A stretch of 64,000 nt of DNA, taken from Candidatus Latescibacterota bacterium. Its GTDB lineage: Bacteria > Latescibacterota > UBA2968 > GCA-2709665. Below are positions 50,962 through 62,250 of this stretch, one piece after another; the first letter of the stretch is position 1, and each line of letters begins with the position of its first letter. The notes under the pieces were generated by a model. The model was given only the letters and a program-made list of their open reading frames with translations, was not told where the DNA came from and searched no databases. The position numbers were made by a program, and so were the translations under genes. The DNA is taken from contig CAXXXF010000004.1 in assembly GCA_963667175.2 (NCBI GenBank), positions 64,001 through 128,000 of the forward strand, given 5' to 3'.

Positions 50962-53900
50962 TCAGCTCGCCTCTCCAGAGAGAATCTCCCAGACCCGCTT
51001 ATATCCGGTGCCGGACAGCGGCACGCCCTCCGGTCTCACCCCGTCCCATTCATCGGCGCCCAGTCCCCGTAGGAAACGCCGCGCTGCTCCCACCGAATAC
51101 CGCCCCATATCCTCACCGGTGACATCCCGGTAGAGGCTCCCTAACCCCTCGGCGGCGCTGCGCGGGGCGGCATTCATCCGCATGAGTACCGCATCTTCGC
51201 TGCTTACACCATGATAGATCATGGCGGGCAGGGCGTTGATCCGTCGCTTGTCGACTTCGGAAAGCGCGTCGAAATCTATCCCCGACACCCGACTCAGCGC
51301 CGAAACACCCCATGTTCCGCTGTTGACGATGGTGCGGTAGATCGCCCTGCACGCATCCGTCAGGGCGGCTGTGCCCACTTCGTCGTCGTTCTCGCGGCTG
51401 AAATACTCCCTCGCGATCGCTTCCAGACCCCTTCCGTTCACCCAGTCGTTGGTGATCTCGGAGATCCGGCTCCGGTCGAACCCTTGCCCCCCCAGCTCGA
51501 TTAGGTCCTGCTTGAGCTGCGGGACCCTCAACATGACGCCGACCAGGTCCGCCATTCTGCCGCCGCTGCCGAACAGGCTCTCCGGCGCCCAGTCCGACAC
51601 GGTGAGCCTGCTCTCCAGATTGCCGATGCCGCCCATTGCCGCCTGGACACCTTCCGGCGAGAACCCGGTGGAATCTGCAAGCTCCGCGATGCCCTGCGGC
51701 ATTTCGGCAAGCTCGCGCGCGTAGCTATGCGTCGCATCAAGAAGGGCATCCGCCTTCTGCCTCTGCTGCGGATCGTTCCGCATCGAGGTATATCCGTAGG
51801 TCTGCCTCAGAAGCTGCTCGGAATCCGCAAGGACCGCATCCAGGTTCTTCTTCTCCGCCCACAGATGTGCGATGTAGCAGCGAAAATCCTCCCACTGATC
51901 CTTCCAGAGTACATCGGACAGCTTCGCCAACGACCCCTGCGCGGCCAGCTCGTCCAGAAGCACAACGAGACGAGAAACGAGCGCACCCGTGTTACGACTC
52001 ACGAACTCGATCAAGGCATCGCGATCGCTCCCCTCGGACAGTCCGACTACACCGACGCTGTCGTGACCAATCCGTCCTGCGCGCCCCACGAGGTTCCAGA
52101 ACTCCCGCGGCGCGATTTCCACCGATCTCGTTCCCTGCGGCACATAGCGCGAGGACAGAAAGACCGACGACACCGGAAAGTTGATGCCCTGGGCGATCGT
52201 CGAAGTCGCGCACAGCATACGCAGGCTGCCCGTTTCCGCAAGCCACTCCATCAGCGCCCGGACATCGTCGGACAACCCCGCATGGTGCACGCCCACGCCC
52301 TTCTCAAGCATGCCGACCAGCCTGAAGTCGGCGCTGATCTCGGTGCGCACGAAGTCCTGAACCAGTCTTATGTCCGACGGTACTTCCTCCATCTCGGGGA
52401 GGCTCCGCGCCGCTTCCCCCGCCATCTTCCAGACCGTGCGAATGTTGTTGGCCACCGCAACACTCGTGCCTCGCGCCGACATCACCGCTCCCATCGCCGC
52501 CGTCTGAAGCCCGAGCCCCTTCTGTGCGCCCTTAGTAAGCACGTGGCTCTTTGGCAAGTCGATCGGCTTCACACCTCCCACGCGGTGCGTTCCGTGAAGC
52601 GGCATGGCCTTCTCGCTGGCGGTCAGCGTCTCGAAATCGAGGTGCCAACCCCCCCGGGCGCTGTCATCGGCCACGGCCCGGTAGAGGCCGATGATTCGCT
52701 CGTTCGGCTTCCACGGAACCGTACCGAGGCTGATTGCGTTCCCCGCGTCGATGTCCTGGGCAAGCCAGCGCGCTACGGACTCAGCTCCCTCCACGTACGG
52801 CATCAGCAGGAGGAAGTTTGCTCGCGGGCAATCCCGCTTTACGGTCGCCAGCAACAGCTCGATCCGCAGGCCCCTGCCTTCCGCCTCCAGATTGTGGGCT
52901 TCGTCCATCACCACCAGCGCGAGAGGACGATCCACCTTTCTGTTCCGGATCACCAGCGACAGCTTCTCGGGCGTCGCGACAAGGATGTCGAACGGCTCGC
53001 TCCTGTCGGCCAGCAACTCTTCCTCGAAGGCGTCCACCTCGACCGCCCCTGTCAACTGCTCGACGCGCAGCCCGATCGGCTCGAAGTCCGTGCGCAGGCG
53101 CCGCGTGATCTGCGCCGACAGCGCACGGGTTGGTGCCACATAGACGACCCATCCCCCGTCGACCTGAAACTGATTCAGCGCCTGGAGTATGCGGAACTGC
53201 GCGAGCAGCGTCTTCCCGCCAGAGGTGGGTAGATCGACCACGATCGCGGTCTTCGCCTGGTCCAGCAGCCCCTGTTCGAGCAGCGCGGCACGCTGAGGCG
53301 GCAAGAGCTCGAACATCGCCTGATGCTCGCGTTTCGTCAGCGAGCGCACGAAGTCCGAGGTCTTCGAATTGACCGTCCGAGTCGCCCACCAAAGAGAATT
53401 AGTCACCATGATACGCGATGTCGCGTGCAGCCAACGCAGAACCACTTCGTGCTGCGCATCCCCCGAAGCGGCCGCCGACTTTATCCCTGCCTCGAAGTGC
53501 TTGTCCAGCGTACCGAACGGATCGCCTGGCTGGCCTTGCAGTATGTAGCTCGCGAGCGTTTCCGTCGCCTTCGCCCAGTTGTAAAGAGCCGCCAACCGCA
53601 GGGCGATTGTCCGGTCCACCGCCTTCGAACCGTTTTGCAGACGACGTTCTTCATGGATTCTCTGGTCATCACGAAGGCCGGAGATTATTTCTCGGATGCG
53701 ATCCAGATCGTCCCAGCCCTCCTTGCGAAAAAGCCGGACCCAGCAATCGAACAGCCTGTAAAGAAGCCTGCGGTCCCATTCCGCATCCGCCACACTCGGC
53801 GCCTTCAGGGCCTCTCCCTGTTCCCGATACCAGCGTCGCAAGTCAGACCAGCGATCGCCGCAATAGGCGATCGCGGAGAGCTGAAGCACGAAGAACAGGC

Positions 53901-54240
53901 GATCCAGCGTCTCCTCCGGTACGGGAAGCAGGCGGCGGATGTCAAAGGCACGGAACGAAGCCGCCACTGCTTGGTCTCTGAGATTCTGGTTCTCTCCCGC
54001 CGGGCGACTCAACTCATCGAGCCCCTCGATGGCGGCGAGCTCGAAGGCGAGCGCCACGCGCACCAGGAACGGTTCCTCGTCAGAGCTTTTCACGAAGGAA
54101 AAGCTGATCTGCCTGCCGACTGCTCGCTGTACTAGCCGCTGGCCCACAAGTTCCCCCGCACGCTCCAACTCATCCGACCCGATGGCAGCGACCGCCCAAT
54201 GTTTGTTCAGCGCCTCCAATGCTCCAGTAGACAGGCTCAT
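50962..54240 (-). CDS. Ski2-like SF2 helicase (Hachiman HamB-like)
   Basis: PTSGGKT, APTRAL, TPEK, DEAH, HHAGL, STIAQGINFP and GRAGR motifs; helical N-terminal domain; coupled to the upstream nuclease gene. Confidence 0.85.
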   Translation of the reverse strand: MSLSTGALEALNKHWAVAAIGSDELERAGELVGQRLVQRAVGRQISFSFVKSSDEEPFLVRVALAFELAAIEGLDELSRPAGENQNLRDQAVAASFRAFDIRRLLPVPEETLDRLFFVLQLSAIAYCGDRWSDLRRWYREQGEALKAPSVADAEWDRRLLYRLFDCWVRLFRKEGWDDLDRIREIISGLRDDQRIHEERRLQNGSKAVDRTIALRLAALYNWAKATETLASYILQGQPGDPFGTLDKHFEAGIKSAAASGDAQHEVVLRWLHATSRIMVTNSLWWATRTVNSKTSDFVRSLTKREHQAMFELLPPQRAALLEQGLLDQAKTAIVVDLPTSGGKTLLAQFRILQALNQFQVDGGWVVYVAPTRALSAQITRRLRTDFEPIGLRVEQLTGAVEVDAFEEELLADRSEPFDILVATPEKLSLVIRNRKVDRPLALVVMDEAHNLEAEGRGLRIELLLATVKRDCPRANFLLLMPYVEGAESVARWLAQDIDAGNAISLGTVPWKPNERIIGLYRAVADDSARGGWHLDFETLTASEKAMPLHGTHRVGGVKPIDLPKSHVLTKGAQKGLGLQTAAMGAVMSARGTSVAVANNIRTVWKMAGEAARSLPEMEEVPSDIRLVQDFVRTEISADFRLVGMLEKGVGVHHAGLSDDVRALMEWLAETGSLRMLCATSTIAQGINFPVSSVFLSSRYVPQGTRSVEIAPREFWNLVGRAGRIGHDSVGVVGLSEGSDRDALIEFVSRNTGALVSRLVVLLDELAAQGSLAKLSDVLWKDQWEDFRCYIAHLWAEKKNLDAVLADSEQLLRQTYGYTSMRNDPQQRQKADALLDATHSYARELAEMPQGIAELADSTGFSPEGVQAAMGGIGNLESRLTVSDWAPESLFGSGGRMADLVGVMLRVPQLKQDLIELGGQGFDRSRISEITNDWVNGRGLEAIAREYFSRENDDEVGTAALTDACRAIYRTIVNSGTWGVSALSRVSGIDFDALSEVDKRRINALPAMIYHGVSSEDAVLMRMNAAPRSAAEGLGSLYRDVTGEDMGRYSVGAARRFLRGLGADEWDGVRPEGVPLSGTGYKRVWEILSGEAS

Positions 54241-55023
54241 CGTTCCACTCCTGACCGCCTCAGAACCATCGCATCCCCGATGCCATCCAGGCTCTCATGT
54301 GGCAGGTAGAGCGCCAGCAGTTCGATACGCGTTCCCTTCCCAGAACCCAACGCAAGACCACTGACCCGCGCCCTCAGGTCATCCCGATGGGGTTCCACGT
54401 CGCGAACAAGGAATCCGAAAAGTTGAACGTCGGACGTATTTTGCAGATACCTGCCTGCCGCACGCTCGAACCGAGCGCGCCATGGAGCCAACCCGGCCCG
54501 ATGACCGAGATACTTCAGGAGATCGTCACGGACTGCCTGGCTGTCGCGCAGATCTTCCAATTGCCGCTTCCCCGTACATCGCGCCTGGAGGGTAGCTGGG
54601 ATCGCTCGAAGTCTTCACCTCACCGAAAGCGAGACAGTCGCCGCTGTCGTCACTCCCGAATCCTACCAGATCGGCGCCCGGCAGGCTGGACCTGCTCTTT
54701 CTCTCGTCCCGTCCATCCGGCCAAGGAAAGCTGCATGATCGATGGTCTGTCAGATAGACCTCGGCAATCGCTTCGCCCACCCGCCAGTCCTCGACCGCAT
54801 CCGGATCCTCCAGCACGCGTCGGAGCCCGTCTTGGGCAAAGCTTGTCTCGGCCACTTCCGCAAGAATTCCCTCGATGTTCGCCTTGCCCTCATCATCGAA
54901 GAGAACAGCGGACAACCGACCGTCCATCGCGGTATTCAATTCTACATCCGACCATCGCAGGCCAACCCCTGAACAGGGGGCCTCACCGATATCGTAGACG
55001 GCTTCTCCTGCACCGATGGTCAT
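54237..55023 (-). pseudogene. HamA-like PD-(D/E)xK nuclease, frameshifted near 54570
   Basis: VGEAIAEVYL, PGADLVGF and FGEVKTS lie in ORF 54526..55023; the sequence continues as KRQLEDLR in the frame of ORF 54237..54560. Confidence 0.7.
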
Positions 55024-55391
55024 TGGCGCCCACCCCCCACCCAGGCGAGCTCGATGTTCCGCTCCGGAAACCGCACCCTTTCGGTGTGCCCGTCCACCAC
55101 CGTACCCGACGCCAATCGCGCTCGGTGTTCAACACCGTACCTTTCCATGCAACAGAATCCCGTCAAGAGTGCCCCTGATTCCTCCCCGTGTCTGCGCCGA
55201 CCACCGCCAGCGCATCGCACATCTGCCGAACAAGAAGGACTGACTCCAGTGTTCGTCGATGTCATATGTCTCCCCTGATGGGTGAGAGGCAATTCGGATC
55301 GGCAATATAGGTGCTCGAATGTTCACATGCAACCTCAGTTGCCGGCGGGTAAGGAGGATCCTTGATCTCGGCCGTATCGGGCCCGACTTAG

Positions 55392-57092
55392 CTAGGATTT
55401 TTCCCAAGTGAGAAGTCGCTCAACCGCATCTGCGGAGACCGCTGCACCGCCATCCAAGAAGACATCCGGGACCCCGGAACCGTAGAATCTGACGTTTTCG
55501 GCCTTGAAGACGTTTCGGGCGTGTGTTACGGCATCAGGGAGTTTCCCCAGGGTATCGAGCTCGTCACGATAGAGCCATCGGCTTTCGTAACCGTTTTCCT
55601 TGCCGATCACGCTGCACCGCACTTGATCGTCCGCGTCCTCTCCGTGTCCCGAACTCTTGCGGATTCGCGCTGCGAGGAATGCGCGGTACGTGACGTCGTC
55701 GGGGGGCAGGGCGTAGCCCATGAGAACGACGTGATTGGCCTCCTGTACTACCACACGCATTTCGCGTTGTATCTCTTCGAGAAATGGAGGCGGCGCGGTC
55801 TTGAAGCTCGTCTGCATCACCAAGGGTGTGTGGTGCGCATAGGTCAGAGTCCTGCAGTGGACGCATGCGCGGGCGTCGACTTCTCCCAGGCGCCATTTGC
55901 TGCACTCCTTTTCACGCCAGCTCTTGAATTGGAGGTCGTGCACGAAGGCCCTGAGTGGGGGCGGGGGAAGCAGCGATGCGGAGTCCATCTCCCACTCGTC
56001 GCCGATATAGGACGAAAGCTTTCCGCAGTTCGGGCACTCGCGCCACCACAGGCACCCGTGCGGAAACAGATACTTGCTCACGCGGATCCTCAGGTTCGCT
56101 CCGTGTGTGCGGTCGTTGAGTTGCCTGGCGGACGAGATGTTCATGGGCTGCCAGACCTTGTTCCCCACATGCTCTTTATCGACCCTGGGGCCGGCCACGA
56201 AGTAGCCGAGCTCGTGGTAGAGCTGCATCTTGCGAGCCGGGCTTCCTACGTGCGGTACGTTGAAAGCCCGGTTGAGGCAGCGGTTCGCCACAAACTGCAC
56301 CCATAGCCCTACCGGGTCCCAGTTCATGCTCACGACGCTCACGTCCCCCTCGATGAATTTGTCCCGCTCGAAGTCGTCGGGTCCGGCCTCCGCGTCGAAT
56401 CTCAGACCCTCACGCTGCATCCTCCGGCCCAGCTCGTCGGCGAAGTCCAGGTGGTACCGCAGGTGCGGACACTTCCGGGCGCGCGAATGCCAGTCAACGT
56501 AGGTCAGGGCTTGGATAAGCAGAACCAGTGCCCCGCGGGCGCCGATGACACGTTGCGGCGTGAGAAACTCGCCCTTCCGGGCCGGGAACCCGTGGCCGCT
56601 CTGCTCGTGCATGTCCAGAAGGTTGAAGAGGTCGATGAGCTTGAATTCGGTCTGGGCCTCACTCGCTTCGACTCCGGCGTCGCGATTCGACACGCGGACT
56701 GGGCAAACGTTGATGGCGGCAACGAGCGCCGGCCAGTCATAGAGACCGCGTAGCTCGACAATGCGATTGCGGAGCTTCTCTTCGTCTTCGTCCTCCCAGT
56801 TTTTTTTCATCGCCTCCAGCTGCTCAGCGCGGATGTCACCGACGGAGAGCGGATCCTTGGTGGCCTCGTCGCTGTCTCCGAGAATCTTGAGGAGGTCGCA
56901 AAACGCCGTCACCCATCGTTCCGAAATGCCTTCTCCGAGGGCGTTGCGAACCCGGTCCTCAAGTATCTCCGGCCGTTCAGGAAGGGGTGCGAGTGCGCGG
57001 AGGAACTTCCCTTGGCGCTCCGTCGTGTGAATCCCGAGGGATGCCGTCGCGCCAGCGCCCCAGAACAGGACTGTGCGGGATCCGGATCTCAT
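55392..57092 (-). CDS. SIR2-like protein with Zn ribbon (putative NADase effector)
   Basis: VLFWGAGAT, SMNWD, PHGCLWW, CPNC...CVHC and VLMGYALP motifs. The start overlaps the stop of the upstream gene (ATGA). Confidence 0.75.
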   Translation of the reverse strand: MRSGSRTVLFWGAGATASLGIHTTERQGKFLRALAPLPERPEILEDRVRNALGEGISERWVTAFCDLLKILGDSDEATKDPLSVGDIRAEQLEAMKKNWEDEDEEKLRNRIVELRGLYDWPALVAAINVCPVRVSNRDAGVEASEAQTEFKLIDLFNLLDMHEQSGHGFPARKGEFLTPQRVIGARGALVLLIQALTYVDWHSRARKCPHLRYHLDFADELGRRMQREGLRFDAEAGPDDFERDKFIEGDVSVVSMNWDPVGLWVQFVANRCLNRAFNVPHVGSPARKMQLYHELGYFVAGPRVDKEHVGNKVWQPMNISSARQLNDRTHGANLRIRVSKYLFPHGCLWWRECPNCGKLSSYIGDEWEMDSASLLPPPPLRAFVHDLQFKSWREKECSKWRLGEVDARACVHCRTLTYAHHTPLVMQTSFKTAPPPFLEEIQREMRVVVQEANHVVLMGYALPPDDVTYRAFLAARIRKSSGHGEDADDQVRCSVIGKENGYESRWLYRDELDTLGKLPDAVTHARNVFKAENVRFYGSGVPDVFLDGGAAVSADAVERLLTWEKS

Positions 57093-57499
57093 TTCTTCCT
57101 GCAAGGGGCGGGAATGGTGATGCTCTTCGGGGCGGGAATGGTGATGCTCTTCAAAGTCCAGACCGGTTTCCCTTCCTTCTCTGGGACTTTTTCGACTTCG
57201 ACTTCGACCGCCGTCTGTTGGGTCGCCGCGGCCACAAGATCGGGCAGCTTGGCGCAGTCGCATACCGTAATCGGAACGCTTTTTAACGATCCGCAGCTGG
57301 GAGTCGCGACGCCTTCCGTGCATTCGCATTTACAGGTCGGCAAGAACACTGCGTATATCTTGGTGCCGTCCGAAACGGAATGTTCGGAGTTCGGTGTGAA
57401 GAGGAGTTTCGTCTGACACCCCGGTTTCCACTTCACGCTGATGATTCCCACAGACTTGAAGGTTTTTTTGTTCTCGTTGCAGGTCTTGTTGCAGGTCAT
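57089..57499 (-). CDS. Small Cys-rich beta-rich hypothetical protein
   Basis: AGGAG RBS before ATG 57499; coupled to the SIR2-like gene. Confidence 0.65.
   Translation of the reverse strand: MTCNKTCNENKKTFKSVGIISVKWKPGCQTKLLFTPNSEHSVSDGTKIYAVFLPTCKCECTEGVATPSCGSLKSVPITVCDCAKLPDLVAAATQQTAVEVEVEKVPEKEGKPVWTLKSITIPAPKSITIPAPCRKK
57105..57152. repeat. Exact 24-bp tandem duplication (KSITIPAP x2)
   Basis: GGGGCGGGAATGGTGATGCTCTTC occurs twice in tandem. Confidence 0.92.
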
Positions 57500-57754
57500 G
57501 CGCCCATATCTCCTGACAAAAAGGTGTGCAAATCTCGCGAGTCTACGGAACGAAGCTTGGTTCCTCCAATAGGGTTTTCCTAAAGCGGGTGTGACGCCAC
57601 AACCCACCATGGCGAAGCGCTCGTTCGGCCCGGTTTGTTGGTCGGTTCTACGCCTTCTCTGGGTAGAAAAGTCCACAGGGCCCGCCCGAAGTCGGTTACC
57701 TCATCTTCGCGCAATCACAGAGGGTCCTCACAGTTACCTGTCCTGGGCGTCGTG

Positions 57755-58558
57755 TCATAGAGGGGATAGGAGCCCGCGCAATTCCGGCGACACGGCGACG
57801 TAGTGTTTCGTATTGACGGGGCTGCCGAGTGTGGAAACGGCGAATCGGTATTCGTTTTGTGGCTCGAACGATCTGCGCTTGGTGAACCAAGCCCTCGGTC
57901 CGGCACCCGGATCGAACCAATGCTCTTGGGTGTCAACGCGCCCCGATCGATCCGCATAGTGGACGGGACCGTGATAGACGTGAACGACGGTTTCAATGGT
58001 AGTCGAACCCTCCTCAACACTCGTGGAGTAGTGTGTGGCGGCGTAGAGTATTTCATCGAGCCCACTGAATTGTACATCCGCTGTTTTGTCAAGGCCGAGG
58101 GCAAACTCGATGCCCAGCCAGGTGGCGAATGCGTCAGCATCAGCGATTCCAGTCGCGGCAGTGTAACCGTATTCGGAGGCGAAGTGGTCACTCAATCGTC
58201 CAAACTCGCGATCGTTACGGTAGTGAGCGGCGCAGAAAATCCATGGTTCATCTGATGAGACAAACGTCAGCTCTGCTTGCGTGACGGAACCACCCGGGAT
58301 GACTCTGTCGGCCCAACTGGTGGCGACCTTGGTGAGGGCGCCATCTTTTCGGTCGCCGATTCCATGTTTGAGGTCTTCCTGATCGCGGTAGAATGCGGGC
58401 GTGGCGAGTTGGAGCATTTCTGTGCAGAAAGCGGCATAAGCCCGCTCTGAGAACTTTACAACGTTGCCAACGGCCGGCGCCCGCGGGGATCGATGGTCGT
58501 GGTTATGCATAAGGATCAGGTGCAGGGATCGAGTTTCCTTGTCCTGGACGGTGACCAT
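57755..58558 (-). CDS. Hypothetical protein, DUF2971-like motifs
   Basis: WIFCAA, GPVHY and FTKRRSFEPQNEYRF motifs. Confidence 0.55.
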   Translation of the reverse strand: MVTVQDKETRSLHLILMHNHDHRSPRAPAVGNVVKFSERAYAAFCTEMLQLATPAFYRDQEDLKHGIGDRKDGALTKVATSWADRVIPGGSVTQAELTFVSSDEPWIFCAAHYRNDREFGRLSDHFASEYGYTAATGIADADAFATWLGIEFALGLDKTADVQFSGLDEILYAATHYSTSVEEGSTTIETVVHVYHGPVHYADRSGRVDTQEHWFDPGAGPRAWFTKRRSFEPQNEYRFAVSTLGSPVNTKHYVAVSPELRGLLSPL

Positions 58559-59325
58559 GCTGGATACCGGGGAAAACGCTGCGGCCGAGGGGTTTCTGTC
58601 CTTCGCAAGGCGGGAGGATTCGTCGATGGCTCGGTTCGTGGTCCGGATCGCATCCTGACCCAGATGTCACACAAGCAAGCGACCGTCGAGGTACCATGAA
58701 GCGGTTGAGCTATGGCAGTCCATCAATTCTCCAACTAACAATAGAGAATCCGCGTGCGTGACAACATCGCGCACACCAATCCGAAACATGACGCTTGCAA
58801 GTCTTGCGTTGATCTCTGATTGATGACGGCTTAACCATTGTTTGGCGCGCTCCAGGGCGGGACATATGCTCTGCAAGGTCAACCAAGACTTCGCCGAACA
58901 GTCCGGGAGGCCGATTGACAAGACGGCGACTGTCGCAGTGAATCATCTCATTGTCGTGAATTTGACTGGAAGCCTGACTCTTGTTTGTGTGCGTATTCTA
59001 AACATAACGGATTGACCTATGTATACGAAGAATAAAGCACTGGTCAAGTCCCAAATCTTCTGTGAGATCGTCTATCCGGGTAAATGCCGCTTGGTAATCG
59101 GCGGCTGAATCCGCCGGCAACTGCTGTTGTATCACCCTTGACAGAAACCTCCCATCGTACAACAAAGGCCCTTGCGATTCCCCGACGTTGCCGTTACCTT
59201 TGGCACCGGTCGTCGTTACCTTCGCGCACGCGATGAACAACATTTGGGACGCGGTTGGGAACGTGCAGGCGAATCCGTCGACCATCCCGGGTGTCGACGA
59301 AATCCAAAGTAAATTGGTCGAGCCG

Positions 59326-60165
59326 ATGTCAAGCGTTTGGAGCCGCCAGGAGGTCGAAGCCACTGTTCGAGACTATTTCGATATGCTGGCTTCGGAACTT
59401 CAGGGTGAGGGGTTCAACAAAGCCGCCCACAACCGAACGCTCCGTGATCTGTTGGATGGCCGCACGCAGAGCGCGGTAGAGCGCAAACACCAGAACATCA
59501 GCGCGGTCCTGATTGAGTTGGGTTTCCCTTACATCAGCGGATACAAGCCGCTCTCCAACGTCCAACATTTGTTGCGGGATGTGGTGAGCAAGCACCTTTC
59601 GTTGCTCGAGCACCTGGTCAAAGCGGATGTCGAGACAACCCAGACCCCGGTCTCAGTCGATGATATCCTCGACATTGGTGTCGATCCGCCTGTGCCAGCT
59701 TCCGGTTCGGTACGTGAGGGACCGATTGATTACGTCGTCTCCCGCCAAACTGGCCCACCGATCAACTATCTCCAGATGGAAGCGCGTAATCGATCGCTCG
59801 GGTGCGCCGGCGAAGCACTGGTCATGGAGTTCGAACGCACCCGCCTGCGGCGTGAAGGCAAGGATCAGCTTGCCAGAAACGTCGAGCAGGTCTCCAAGAC
59901 CGTGGGCGACCACGCCGGATTCGATATTCGTTCGTACGAAGTCAGCGGGCAGGATCGATTCATCGAGGTCAAAACGACGCGTTACGGCAAGCTCACGCCA
60001 TTCTACGTCAGTACTGGCGAAGTCCGTTTTTCCAAGACGAACGCAAACGCGTACCATCTCTACCGGCTGTTCGAATTTCGCCAGACACCCAGGCTTTTCC
60101 AGTTACCAGGGGACGTCGGTCGTCACGTACATTTACAGGCAGTAAACTACCGCGCACATTTCTGA
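59326..60165 (+). CDS. DUF3883 (PD-(D/E)xK) nuclease with N-terminal helical/wHTH domain
   Basis: WSRQEV, ERKHQNISAVL, GFDIRSY and FIEVKTT motifs. Confidence 0.85.
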   Translation: MSSVWSRQEVEATVRDYFDMLASELQGEGFNKAAHNRTLRDLLDGRTQSAVERKHQNISAVLIELGFPYISGYKPLSNVQHLLRDVVSKHLSLLEHLVKADVETTQTPVSVDDILDIGVDPPVPASGSVREGPIDYVVSRQTGPPINYLQMEARNRSLGCAGEALVMEFERTRLRREGKDQLARNVEQVSKTVGDHAGFDIRSYEVSGQDRFIEVKTTRYGKLTPFYVSTGEVRFSKTNANAYHLYRLFEFRQTPRLFQLPGDVGRHVHLQAVNYRAHF

Positions 60166-60365
60166 CCTTGATTCGTCATTTTTCGGTGACGTTAGATCGA
60201 TTATGCGCTAGTTAACAAAGGCGATTTAACATCGGATTTCCAGGAACCTTCAGGCCACTGGACGTGAACGGAAAAAATCTCATTCCGGACGACCTTTCGG
60301 CGCTATTCGGAAGGTTTTGTCGCGCCCGTTGCCAATCGCGTCTATCTCGACGAGAAAAAACTGAA

Positions 60366-62103: not shown

Positions 62104-62250
62104 GGAACCGCCCCTACGAAAACCTTACATCCTTAGAATCGATATTGCCGTCCCGTGCGACAACCCTGGATCTGTAGGGGCAGCCCTTGCGGTTGCCCGC
62201 CTTGTCACTGTATCCGCTCTTCCCTTTGTGTCTTTGTGTCTCCGTGTGAG
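62104..62250. repeat. Pair of GTAG-type REP-like elements plus GACAC module
   Basis: GGAACCGCCCCTAC and GTAGGGGCAGCCCTTGCGGTTGCCC in opposite orientation; homologous to 1878-1966. Confidence 0.65.

Follow-up and report, generated by a model that had tools for sequence, protein, structure and literature searches.

A Candidate SIR2 Defense Gene Pair with a Predicted OB-Fold Partner and an Atypical, Sirtuin-like Enzyme

What is the function of two overlapping genes, one for a small β-rich protein and the other for a SIR2-like enzyme, that lie together in a variable region of the genome of a Candidatus Latescibacterota bacterium? We have studied this pair in a stretch of 64,000 nucleotides (contig CAXXXF010000004.1, positions 64,001 to 128,000), which we call the window and number from its first letter. 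A first-pass annotation had proposed that the pair, at 55392-57499, forms an undescribed SIR2 defense system in which the small protein acts as a sensor or inhibitor. On our analysis the pair is a candidate for SIR2-based defense in which the partner is new and the SIR2 protein is atypical, being sirtuin-like.

Both genes are on the reverse strand, as are all features of the pair given below. The small gene (57089-57499), here called the partner gene, runs from an ATG at 57499 to a TGA at 57089 and encodes 136 amino acids with a predicted OB fold. It is followed by the enzyme gene (55392-57092), which runs from an ATG at 57092 to a stop codon at 55392 and encodes 566 amino acids of predicted SIR2 fold, in which there are a long insertion of helices and a predicted zinc ribbon. 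The start of the second gene overlaps the stop of the first, the tetranucleotide ATGA at 57089-57092 being common to both, and the pair occupies 2.1 kb. A mechanical list of open reading frames (ORFs) contains longer forms of 645 (enzyme) and 195 (partner) amino acids. The 566-residue form of the enzyme is favored because the 38 homologues that were aligned begin at MRSGSRT or within a few residues of it. This layout, including the ten cysteine residues of the small protein, is as the first-pass annotation had described it, and judged by their homologues both ORFs are real genes rather than chance reading frames.

To what family does the enzyme belong? Neither protein matched NCBIfam, PADLOC-DB v2 or PHROGs, or any Pfam family at E ≤ 0.01 (with only noise at E ≤ 10), or any PDB sequence, whether they were used as single sequences or as family profiles. 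The enzyme gave no match to the Pfam families SIR2_2 (PF13289) and SIR2 (PF02146) even at E ≤ 10. In a word-seeded search, 717 of the 8000 candidates scored were homologues of the enzyme at E ≤ 1e-3; all are unnamed or ‘hypothetical’, and none carries a precomputed Pfam domain. When 1.84 billion representatives were searched exhaustively with HMMER, 313 clusters matched at E ≤ 1e-3, mostly of 500-600 amino acids, and 119 of them did so at E ≤ 1e-30. There was no fused OB-SIR2 form among the homologues listed, over a range of 311-991 amino acids. As the family is detected by neither Pfam nor PADLOC v2, it would probably be missed by surveys based on Pfam-type SIR2 profiles. The first-pass annotation had held that failure to match a described system would speak for novelty, and no PADLOC v2 model matches the pair, although releases of DefenseFinder or PADLOC newer than v2 could list the enzyme family.

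The assignment to SIR2 comes from the predicted structure. The AlphaFold2 model of the enzyme (38 homologues) has a pLDDT of 72 and a pTM of 0.78, with 103 residues below 50 and low-confidence stretches at residues 133-148, 280-317 and 419-438. When the model was compared with 48,161 representative PDB chains using VIA, the top 20 matches were all members of the SIR2 family, with Z between 8.2 and 13.5. The best was PsSIR2 of the SIR2-HerA system (8w9l_A; Z = 13.5, rmsd 4.1, 295 residues aligned). Further matches were E. coli Nezha Sir2 (Z = 11.3, 311 residues aligned), Sir2-Af1 (1ici, Z = 10.6), KomC (9v0g, Z = 10.4), SIRT1 and Avs5 (9jap; both Z = 9.8) and ThsA (7uxt, Z = 9.2). Classical sirtuins taken together (1ici, 4i5i, 5fyq and 3pki) matched with Z = 8.3-10.6, and SirTM structures (5a3a and 8rsn) with Z = 8.3-8.9. 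The first chains outside the SIR2 family, at Z ≤ 7.5, were other Rossmann-type nucleotide-binding domains, for example those of transhydrogenase and ThDP enzymes. Foldseek matched the model to SIR2 chains with E between 1.2e-4 and 1.8e-3, SIR2-HerA entries again being the best, and the neighbors of the enzyme in the ESM Atlas are ‘SIR2-like’ or PF13289-bearing clusters. In the predicted model the enzyme is a single SIR2 domain with insertions over the whole of its 566 residues, with no appended sensor domain.

Profile comparisons gave partial correspondences. Five of 34 distant members of the enzyme family reached sub-threshold scores against PF13289, the best being 23.8 bits against a cut-off of 24.5, and these fall on the region of the GYS motif. 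A wider enzyme alignment (A4) was compared by hhalign with 12 SIR2_2 domains from related genomes and matched over only the first 60 columns (probability 53.5%, E = 1.3e-4); the probability was 5% for a narrower alignment (A1). Against classical sirtuins A4 gave a probability of 3% over 17 columns, which is not significant, yet H345, C353 and C356 were placed on the sirtuin H, C and C. Since there is no match in Pfam, among PDB sequences or by full-length hhalign, the SIR2 assignment depends on the predicted structure. Predicted fold and motif order together support membership of the SIR2/DHS-like NAD-binding fold, in agreement with the SIR2-like character claimed for the enzyme at the outset.

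We examined the conservation of sequence motifs in an alignment of 53 enzyme members, with identities down to 23%. Ten positions are invariant, i.e., N257, N326, H345, C353, C356, C410, C413, Q427, G459 and G540, while G12-A13-G14 and Y460-S461 are nearly so. The order of the motifs is that of a canonical sirtuin, with a glycine loop followed by N-x-D, HG, a zinc module and G-x-S. The glycine-rich loop GAGAT (residues 12-16; 57045-57059) lies behind the first strand, and hhalign aligns it with the GAGxS loop of SIR2_2. The wider sequence of this loop in the enzyme, GAGATAxLGxPT, may be compared with the sirtuin motif GAGxSxxxGIP. A helical insertion of about 230 residues separates the GAG from N257-W-D259 (56316-56324), part of the sequence SMNWD at residues 255-259, which takes the position of the sirtuin (Q)N-x-D; N257 is present in all 53 members and D259 in the 38 closer ones. 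H345-G346 (56055-56060) includes the putative catalytic histidine, conserved in 53 of 53. It is followed by a predicted zinc ribbon (55854-56036) comprising C353-x2-C356 (CPNC) and C410-x2-C413 (CVHC), all four cysteines of which are invariant. The counterpart of the sirtuin G-(T/S)-S is G459-Y-A/S461 (55710-55718). All the motifs that the first-pass annotation had picked out (GAGA, SMNWD, HG, GY at 459-460, CPNC at 353-356 and CVHC at 410-413) are therefore present.

The zinc module gives the enzyme a mixed character. Its first cysteine pair lies 8 residues past H345 (H-x7-C-x2-C), and the same spacing is found in classical sirtuins from related genomes, where HG is at 122, 123 and 177 and CxxC at 130, 131 and 185. 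The two cysteine pairs are 53 residues apart in the enzyme; in the classical sirtuins of its relatives the distance, there from CxxC to CxC, is 21 residues. One study of immune SIR2 proteins (‘sirim’) describes the zinc site and cysteine tetrad as ‘systematically absent’ from them (bioRxiv 10.1101/2024.09.18.613514). A second states that the zinc finger is missing from bacterial defense SIR2s, ‘possibly explaining their distinct functions’, and names N163, D165 and H212 as putative catalytic residues of PsSIR2 (PMC11472057). Both papers connect the zinc site with substrate binding or deacetylase activity (bioRxiv 10.1101/2024.09.18.613514; PMC11472057). The enzyme departs from the description of the sirim class in that all four cysteines are retained by every member of the alignment, and in sequence spacing its Cys4 module directly follows the catalytic histidine as in a classical sirtuin. 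The reading of the enzyme as a simple NADase effector is less secure for this reason, the tetrad being invariant here yet reported missing from defense SIR2s. The family is sirtuin-like by its zinc module, and defense-like by its best structural match and its genomic setting.

What is the nature of the small protein? Its AlphaFold2 model (pLDDT 85, pTM 0.74) is a five-stranded barrel, with strands at residues 13-23, 31-36, 48-54, 98-108 and 111-120 and a helix at 82-93. This places the helix between strands 3 and 4, the topology of an OB fold. Nearly all VIA matches to the model are OB folds. The best is SilF/CusF (Z = 8.3, rmsd 2.2, 77 residues aligned), and the next are SSB, PriB, the OB domains of MCM and the B subunits of AB5 toxins, with Z = 5.4-7.2; the best Foldseek match has E = 4.8e-3, and the ESM Atlas held no usable match. 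An OB fold is likely, with the qualification that by the tool's own note a Z of about 8 is only moderately over background, and a specific ligand cannot be deduced from such a score. A pattern recurs across loci, consisting of Y-x-S-x-G-T-I, F-x-P, Y-A-V-F, A-A-x-Q-x-x-V-E-V and a C-terminal I-T-I/V-P-A-P tail, in which G18 and P122 are the only residues that are invariant in the family.

The first-pass annotation had described the small protein as rich in cysteine. This is true of the copy in the window, with its ten, but the homologues have between 0 and 10, and 8 of 28 have none. The cysteine richness is lineage-specific, so a role built on it cannot be extended to the family. Five of the ten lie in a variable segment at residues 55-81 (57259-57337), between strand 3 and the helix, which is 13-42 residues long across the 28 homologues and is the least conserved part of the protein. 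Here the mean frequency of the most common residue is 0.25, compared with 0.42 and 0.35 in the flanking core. A related DNA contig has a replaced stretch at 57128-57259, just 3′ of this segment. Across loci, identity to the window copy is 19-48% for the partner and 41-80% for the enzyme, and the former changes at roughly twice the rate of the latter. We saw no signal peptide in the partner sequence. We rejected the idea that the partner is a CusF/SilF metal chaperone, as the ligand residues and cysteines are not conserved and there is no Pfam match. We likewise rejected it as a substrate for modification. It has no invariant Lys, Arg, Ser, Thr, Cys, Asp or Glu, and lacking an invariant acceptor residue it is unlikely to be one.

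Are the two genes linked beyond this genome? We assembled 46 related enzyme loci from a collection of species-representative genomes, 40 of them with a full-length enzyme gene, and built a hidden Markov model (HMM) of the partner from 28 upstream proteins. With this model we located the partner immediately 5′ to the enzyme gene in 33 of the 40 full-length loci (or of 39, if only those with enough upstream DNA are counted), and thus the co-conservation of the pair that was to be checked is found, over several phyla. The exceptions are L026, which lies at the end of its contig, L032, with a split partner, and L011, L025, L027, L031, L033 and L034, which have no partner; the upstream ORFs of these six partner-less loci gave no Pfam match. 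In a sample of 168 genomes of the phylum of the window, the partner occurs in four, each time adjoining the enzyme gene. In one of the four (G131) both genes are decayed, the partner containing an internal TGA and the enzyme gene being a stub of 75 residues. When the 713 ORFs of the 46 loci and of the window were clustered all-versus-all, no third conserved gene emerged, there being no other family in more than five loci. The same clustering revealed no conserved neighbor with a TIR, HerA, Argonaute, SLOG or STAND domain, which bears out the earlier statement that TIR, HerA and Argonaute partners are absent.

Some individual loci have features of their own. In the acidobacterial locus L027, which is among the partner-less ones, a 152-residue protein with two predicted membrane helices and no Pfam match is encoded directly 5′ of the SIR2 gene (L027:7516-7974), just after a GmrSD-type nuclease; its description as SLATT-like was a guess that was not confirmed. 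Two assemblies carry three copies each of the SIR2 gene (L016, L017 and L035; L032, L037 and L040), and where the partner is present its sequence differs between the copies. In five gammaproteobacterial loci, including L008 and L010, the pair is followed on its 3′ side by genes for a protein with an FGE-sulfatase domain and then an AAA+ ATPase (IetA-like PADLOC matches), a clade-specific arrangement that may be a separate neighboring system.

We used structure prediction to ask if the two proteins form a complex. The score was 0.59 (0.59, 0.22 and 0.64 in separate runs), while the best of three controls scored 0.00; contacts agreed between runs to at least 81%, and the pLDDT of the partner was at least 69. 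In calibration, 116 of 157 solved complexes reached the mark for this score, as did 2 of 215 mismatched pairs; at values up to 0.60, however, it was reached by just 18 of the 157 and by both of these mismatches, and the calibration is only approximate here because custom alignments were used. The prediction of the complex, which the first-pass annotation had suggested as a check, lends weak support to binding.

In what genomic surroundings is the pair found? The hosts of the enzyme family, over the 46 loci, are Latescibacterota, Acidobacteriota, Alpha-, Beta- and Gammaproteobacteria, Chloroflexota, Spirochaetia and Desulfuromonadaceae. Judging by record titles and run labels, most of these are uncultured symbionts or soil bacteria. 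The distribution is patchy: a search of 14 other genomes of the genus did not find the family, and among 60 relatives there was only one stub of 75 amino acids. In the window the pair lies in a slot between genes for a hydrolase and a gamma-glutamyltranspeptidase (GGT). This slot measures 9.85 kb in the window and 3.4-4.4 kb in four other members of the genus, none of which has PDC-M23, the pair or an adjacent ORF of 267 amino acids in it. Contigs from metagenomes, with about 97% identity to the pair, extend from 55391 upstream through this 267-residue ORF and diverge exactly at the stop codon of the enzyme gene, from which we conclude that the pair is not tied to the PDC-M23 genes that follow it in the window.

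We scanned the neighbors by taking, on each side of the pair, the two closest ORFs that reach 130 amino acids, giving 124 of 143 ORFs from 34 loci, with 19 from the last loci left out. PADLOC matches at E ≤ 1e-10 were obtained for 22 of the 124 flanking proteins, spread over 18 of the 34 loci. The matches include type IIG and type II restriction-modification, DndB/C, mad genes, PDC candidates, IetA-like ATPases and a methyl-directed nuclease; among the other neighbors are GmrSD, a ResIII helicase, CHAT-TPR and LRR proteins and a DDE transposase.

How does the pair compare with known SIR2 systems? SIR2-HerA (Nezha; PsSIR2 8w9l, E. coli Sir2 8j4u and 8sub) is the closest in structure. The N-x-D...H triad described for PsSIR2 (N163, D165 and H212) corresponds to N257, D259 and H345 of the enzyme, and the two systems also have in common an organization in two genes and, behind the first strand, a large helical small domain. 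SIR2-HerA is found in defense islands, and the setting of the pair may be of this kind. In contrast to SIR2-HerA, the pair has no HerA ATPase (by Pfam and PADLOC, and over the 46 loci) and matches no SIR2-HerA model of PADLOC. The enzyme is about 170 residues longer, its partner is an OB fold of about 120 residues, and it has the invariant Cys4 ribbon that is reportedly missing from proteins of the PsSIR2 type. Thoeris ThsA, DSR1/DSR2, SIR2-pAgo (SPARSA), Avs5 (SIR2-STAND) and Kongming KomBC have a SIR2 effector domain, as is predicted for the pair, and a defense-island lifestyle, which the pair may share; in Kongming, too, the SIR2 protein acts with a separate small partner (PMC13454610). The SIR2 domains of these systems match PF13289, whereas the enzyme does not. 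Unlike Thoeris, there is no ThsB TIR protein and no SLOG or Macro domain on the enzyme (PADLOC and Pfam); unlike SPARSA, Avs5 and Kongming, no Argonaute/APAZ, STAND NTPase, KomA or KomB accompanies the pair. The enzyme is also, as had been noted, much shorter than a DSR (566 amino acids against DSR-like ORFs of approximately 1170-1290), with no C-terminal sensor and no PADLOC DSR match. Since their partners or domains are absent, the defining features of Thoeris, DSR1/2, SIR2-HerA, SPARSA, Avs5 and Kongming are not found here. In the main texts of open-access papers and of bioRxiv preprints, we found no description of a pairing of an OB fold with SIR2 or of a zinc-bearing defense SIR2.

The best reading, to which we would give a probability of about 0.5, is that the pair is a two-gene SIR2 defense module of the abortive-infection type, in which the OB-fold partner is the sensor or regulator of NAD+ consumption. 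From the gene pair and its conservation, the two predicted folds, the catalytic-type residues, the zinc tetrad and the defense-like, patchy setting we infer a self-contained, horizontally mobile module with the OB protein translationally coupled to the enzyme. The OB protein would bind the SIR2 enzyme as a specificity or regulatory subunit, and would either silence it, as an inhibitor released on infection, or report an infection cue. The cue might be sensed through the fast-evolving middle segment of the OB protein. Once triggered, the enzyme would consume NAD+ using Asn257 and His345, and this would halt phage replication. The proposal of an undescribed SIR2 defense system is in this way upheld as regards the conserved pair, the lack of a PADLOC v2 match and the defense-like context; it is the NADase effector within it that the Cys4 tetrad has made less secure.

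A number of results weigh against a defense module of this kind. The enrichment of defense genes about the pair is significant when counted by protein and not when counted by locus. As a control we took 11 arbitrary stretches, each of 12 kb, from this genome and from relatives of it, in which 4 of 96 ORFs were PADLOC-positive; the flanks of the pair exceed this about four-fold (Fisher test, p = 0.0026 per protein), in a comparison that used a crude ORF caller, a control drawn from the clade of the window rather than matched by genome, and related genomes that are not independent. Counted by locus the figures are 18 of 34 against 3 of 11, which is not significant (p = 0.18), and in 16 of the 34 loci none of the four nearest ORFs is PADLOC-positive. 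Some of the PADLOC matches, moreover, concern generic models of ATPases or methylases. A tblastn search of 72,556 plasmid and 50,697 phage records gave no homologue of the enzyme. Seven of the 40 full-length loci have no detectable partner, and the partners have pI values of 5.2-10.4, with no conserved charge pattern that would hint at a nucleic acid ligand. Membership of the SIR2 family was not detected at the level of sequence, and the fold model is of moderate confidence. Lastly, the invariant Cys4 tetrad is a mark of protein-deacylating sirtuins, and as a sequence feature argues against a plain NADase.

The tetrad leads directly to a serious though less likely alternative, namely that the enzyme is a true protein-modifying sirtuin (a deacylase or ADP-ribosyltransferase), with the OB protein as its targeting subunit in a defensive or regulatory role. 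Its placement exactly 8 residues past the histidine, as in the classical sirtuins of relatives, is what such an enzyme would have, as is the order of the motifs. The same alternative draws on the resemblance of the GAGATAxLGxPT loop to that of sirtuins, on the match of classical sirtuins to the model with Z up to 10.6, and on the connection of the zinc site to substrate binding and deacetylase activity and its reported absence from defense SIR2 NADases. Yet the closest structures are NADase-type SIR2s of SIR2-HerA (Z = 13.5 and 11.3), and there is no match to PF02146, the family of CobB, Sir2Tm and Sir2-Af1. The wider gap between the cysteine pairs, 53 residues, may reflect re-use of the ribbon as a partner-binding surface, and both this gap and the ~230-residue helical insertion set the enzyme apart from the classical proteins, whose genes are neither patchy nor island-borne and have no dedicated partner. 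Nor does the partner offer a fixed modification site. Sirtuins of the SirTM type are reportedly encoded in operons beside a small β-rich carrier protein, GcvH-L. The pair resembles these in its juxtaposition of a sirtuin-fold enzyme with a small β-rich protein, but differs in that it lacks a linked gene for a macrodomain or a lipoate ligase (46-locus clustering), that the OB-fold partner has no invariant acceptor residue and that the enzyme keeps its catalytic histidine. In a more specific form, which we consider doubtful, the enzyme would be a zinc-tetrad sirtuin type linking housekeeping sirtuins to immune SIR2 NADases, recruited into phage defense together with a fast-evolving OB-fold specificity subunit and defending by covalent protein modification (ADP-ribosylation or deacylation) rather than by bulk depletion of NAD+. 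If true, protein-modifying SIR2 immunity would be a mode that is not yet described.

Two further explanations do without a dedicated role in phage defense, and both strike us as improbable. The pair might be a toxin-antitoxin-like addiction module, with the SIR2 protein as a constitutively toxic NADase and the OB protein as a labile antitoxin, that stabilizes mobile islands and is not dedicated to the sensing of phage. The gene order, with the small gene first and overlapping that of the larger enzyme, is consistent with this, as are the patchy, island-borne distribution, the strict co-occurrence in the phylum sample with the decay of both genes in G131, and, weakly, the score of the predicted complex (0.59 against 0.00 for the best control). 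But an unchecked toxin is hard to reconcile with the 7 of 40 full-length, intact-looking SIR2 genes that have no partner, none was found on plasmids, and the partner lacks the DNA-binding domain typical of autoregulating antitoxins. Alternatively, the two proteins might serve accessory metabolism or the response to stress and have no part in conflict, the defense neighbors being incidental to a variable slot. The non-significant test by locus and the 16 loci lacking a PADLOC-positive near neighbor fit with this, and the hosts are mostly uncultured symbionts and soil bacteria, in which accessory metabolism is abundant; the best fold match of the partner is to a metal chaperone, and the copy in the window is cysteine-rich. 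Against it, neither the cysteines nor the CusF-type ligand residues are conserved in the partner family, no metabolic gene is conserved beside the pair, and the neighbors include type IIG restriction, Dnd, GmrSD, CHAT-TPR, PDC systems and transposases, with the four-fold enrichment per protein noted above.

Bacterial immunity has turned to SIR2 enzymes as effectors more often than to most others, and human innate immunity includes relatives of them. In the systems known so far SIR2 is combined each time with a different sensor, i.e., TIR signaling, HerA, Argonaute, STAND or tail-tube-binding domains, and an OB-fold partner would add a new logic of sensing or regulation. The zinc tetrad of the enzyme family tests the dividing line between ‘immune’ and ‘housekeeping’ SIR2, and the place of sirtuin-type chemistry in defense. 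Being small (2.1 kb) and self-contained, the pair is easy to test.

Several minor features of the pair were noted. An AGGAG sequence at 57510-57514, 10 nt 5′ of the partner ATG, resembles a ribosome-binding site by consensus match only, and a scan of 54900-59300 for promoters and terminators gave no more sites than were found in shuffled sequences. A perfect tandem duplication of 24 nt at 57105-57152 (Tandem Repeats Finder; period 24, 2.0 copies, 100% match) doubles the conserved C-terminal motif of the partner to give KSITIPAP-KSITIPAP, of which the homologues have a single copy. A contig of 1366 nt that is approximately 97% identical to 55553-56901 was present in one metatranscriptomic run (X13); it was also in the DNA run of the same sample, and its presence does not show transcription. 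On the 5′ side of the partner gene, a stretch of about 48 nt at 57583-57630 acts as a short dispersed repeat in metagenome runs, with depth spikes of 64-78 and several contigs that end there, leaving loose ends on both sides.

The earlier description of the pair as lying between Hachiman-like and nuclease genes was correct in outline. On the 3′ side of the enzyme gene are PDC-M23A and PDC-M23B, the latter (50962-54240) being a DEAD-box helicase that also gives HamB matches. On the 5′ side, and on the other strand, is a NOV_C/PDC-S36 protein (59188-60165), which is kept in three of the four same-genus slots at 82-84% nucleotide identity. The description omits the 267-residue ORF (57755-58558, reverse strand) that intervenes before PDC-S36. 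This ORF has no match in Pfam, NCBIfam or PADLOC and only noise in PHROGs. It accompanies the pair in the ~97% identical contig from a sponge metagenome and is not conserved beside the pair elsewhere. PDC-M23A (54237-55023, reverse strand) is split, with an ORF at 54526-55023 that corresponds to profile positions 1-153 and an overlapping one at 54237-54560 that corresponds to 159-256. In run X2 there is a minority contig with 11 additional bases behind position 54570. These would join both parts in frame, and the copy in the window may for this reason be frameshifted or misassembled.

Two intergenic elements, at 60264-60324 (about 61 nt) and approximately 62167-62250 (about 80 nt), have dozens of copies with 75-97% identity in genomes of the same genus and by their sequences look like repeats of the REP/MITE type; one of the two is at the edge of the variable slot, adjoining the GGT gene. 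On another contig of the same genome a separate PF13289 SIR2_2 protein is encoded within an ORF of 685 amino acids (L076; C18:40063-40449). Its counterparts in relatives are the ORFs of about 1170-1290 amino acids, a length like that of DSR, with which the enzyme was compared above.

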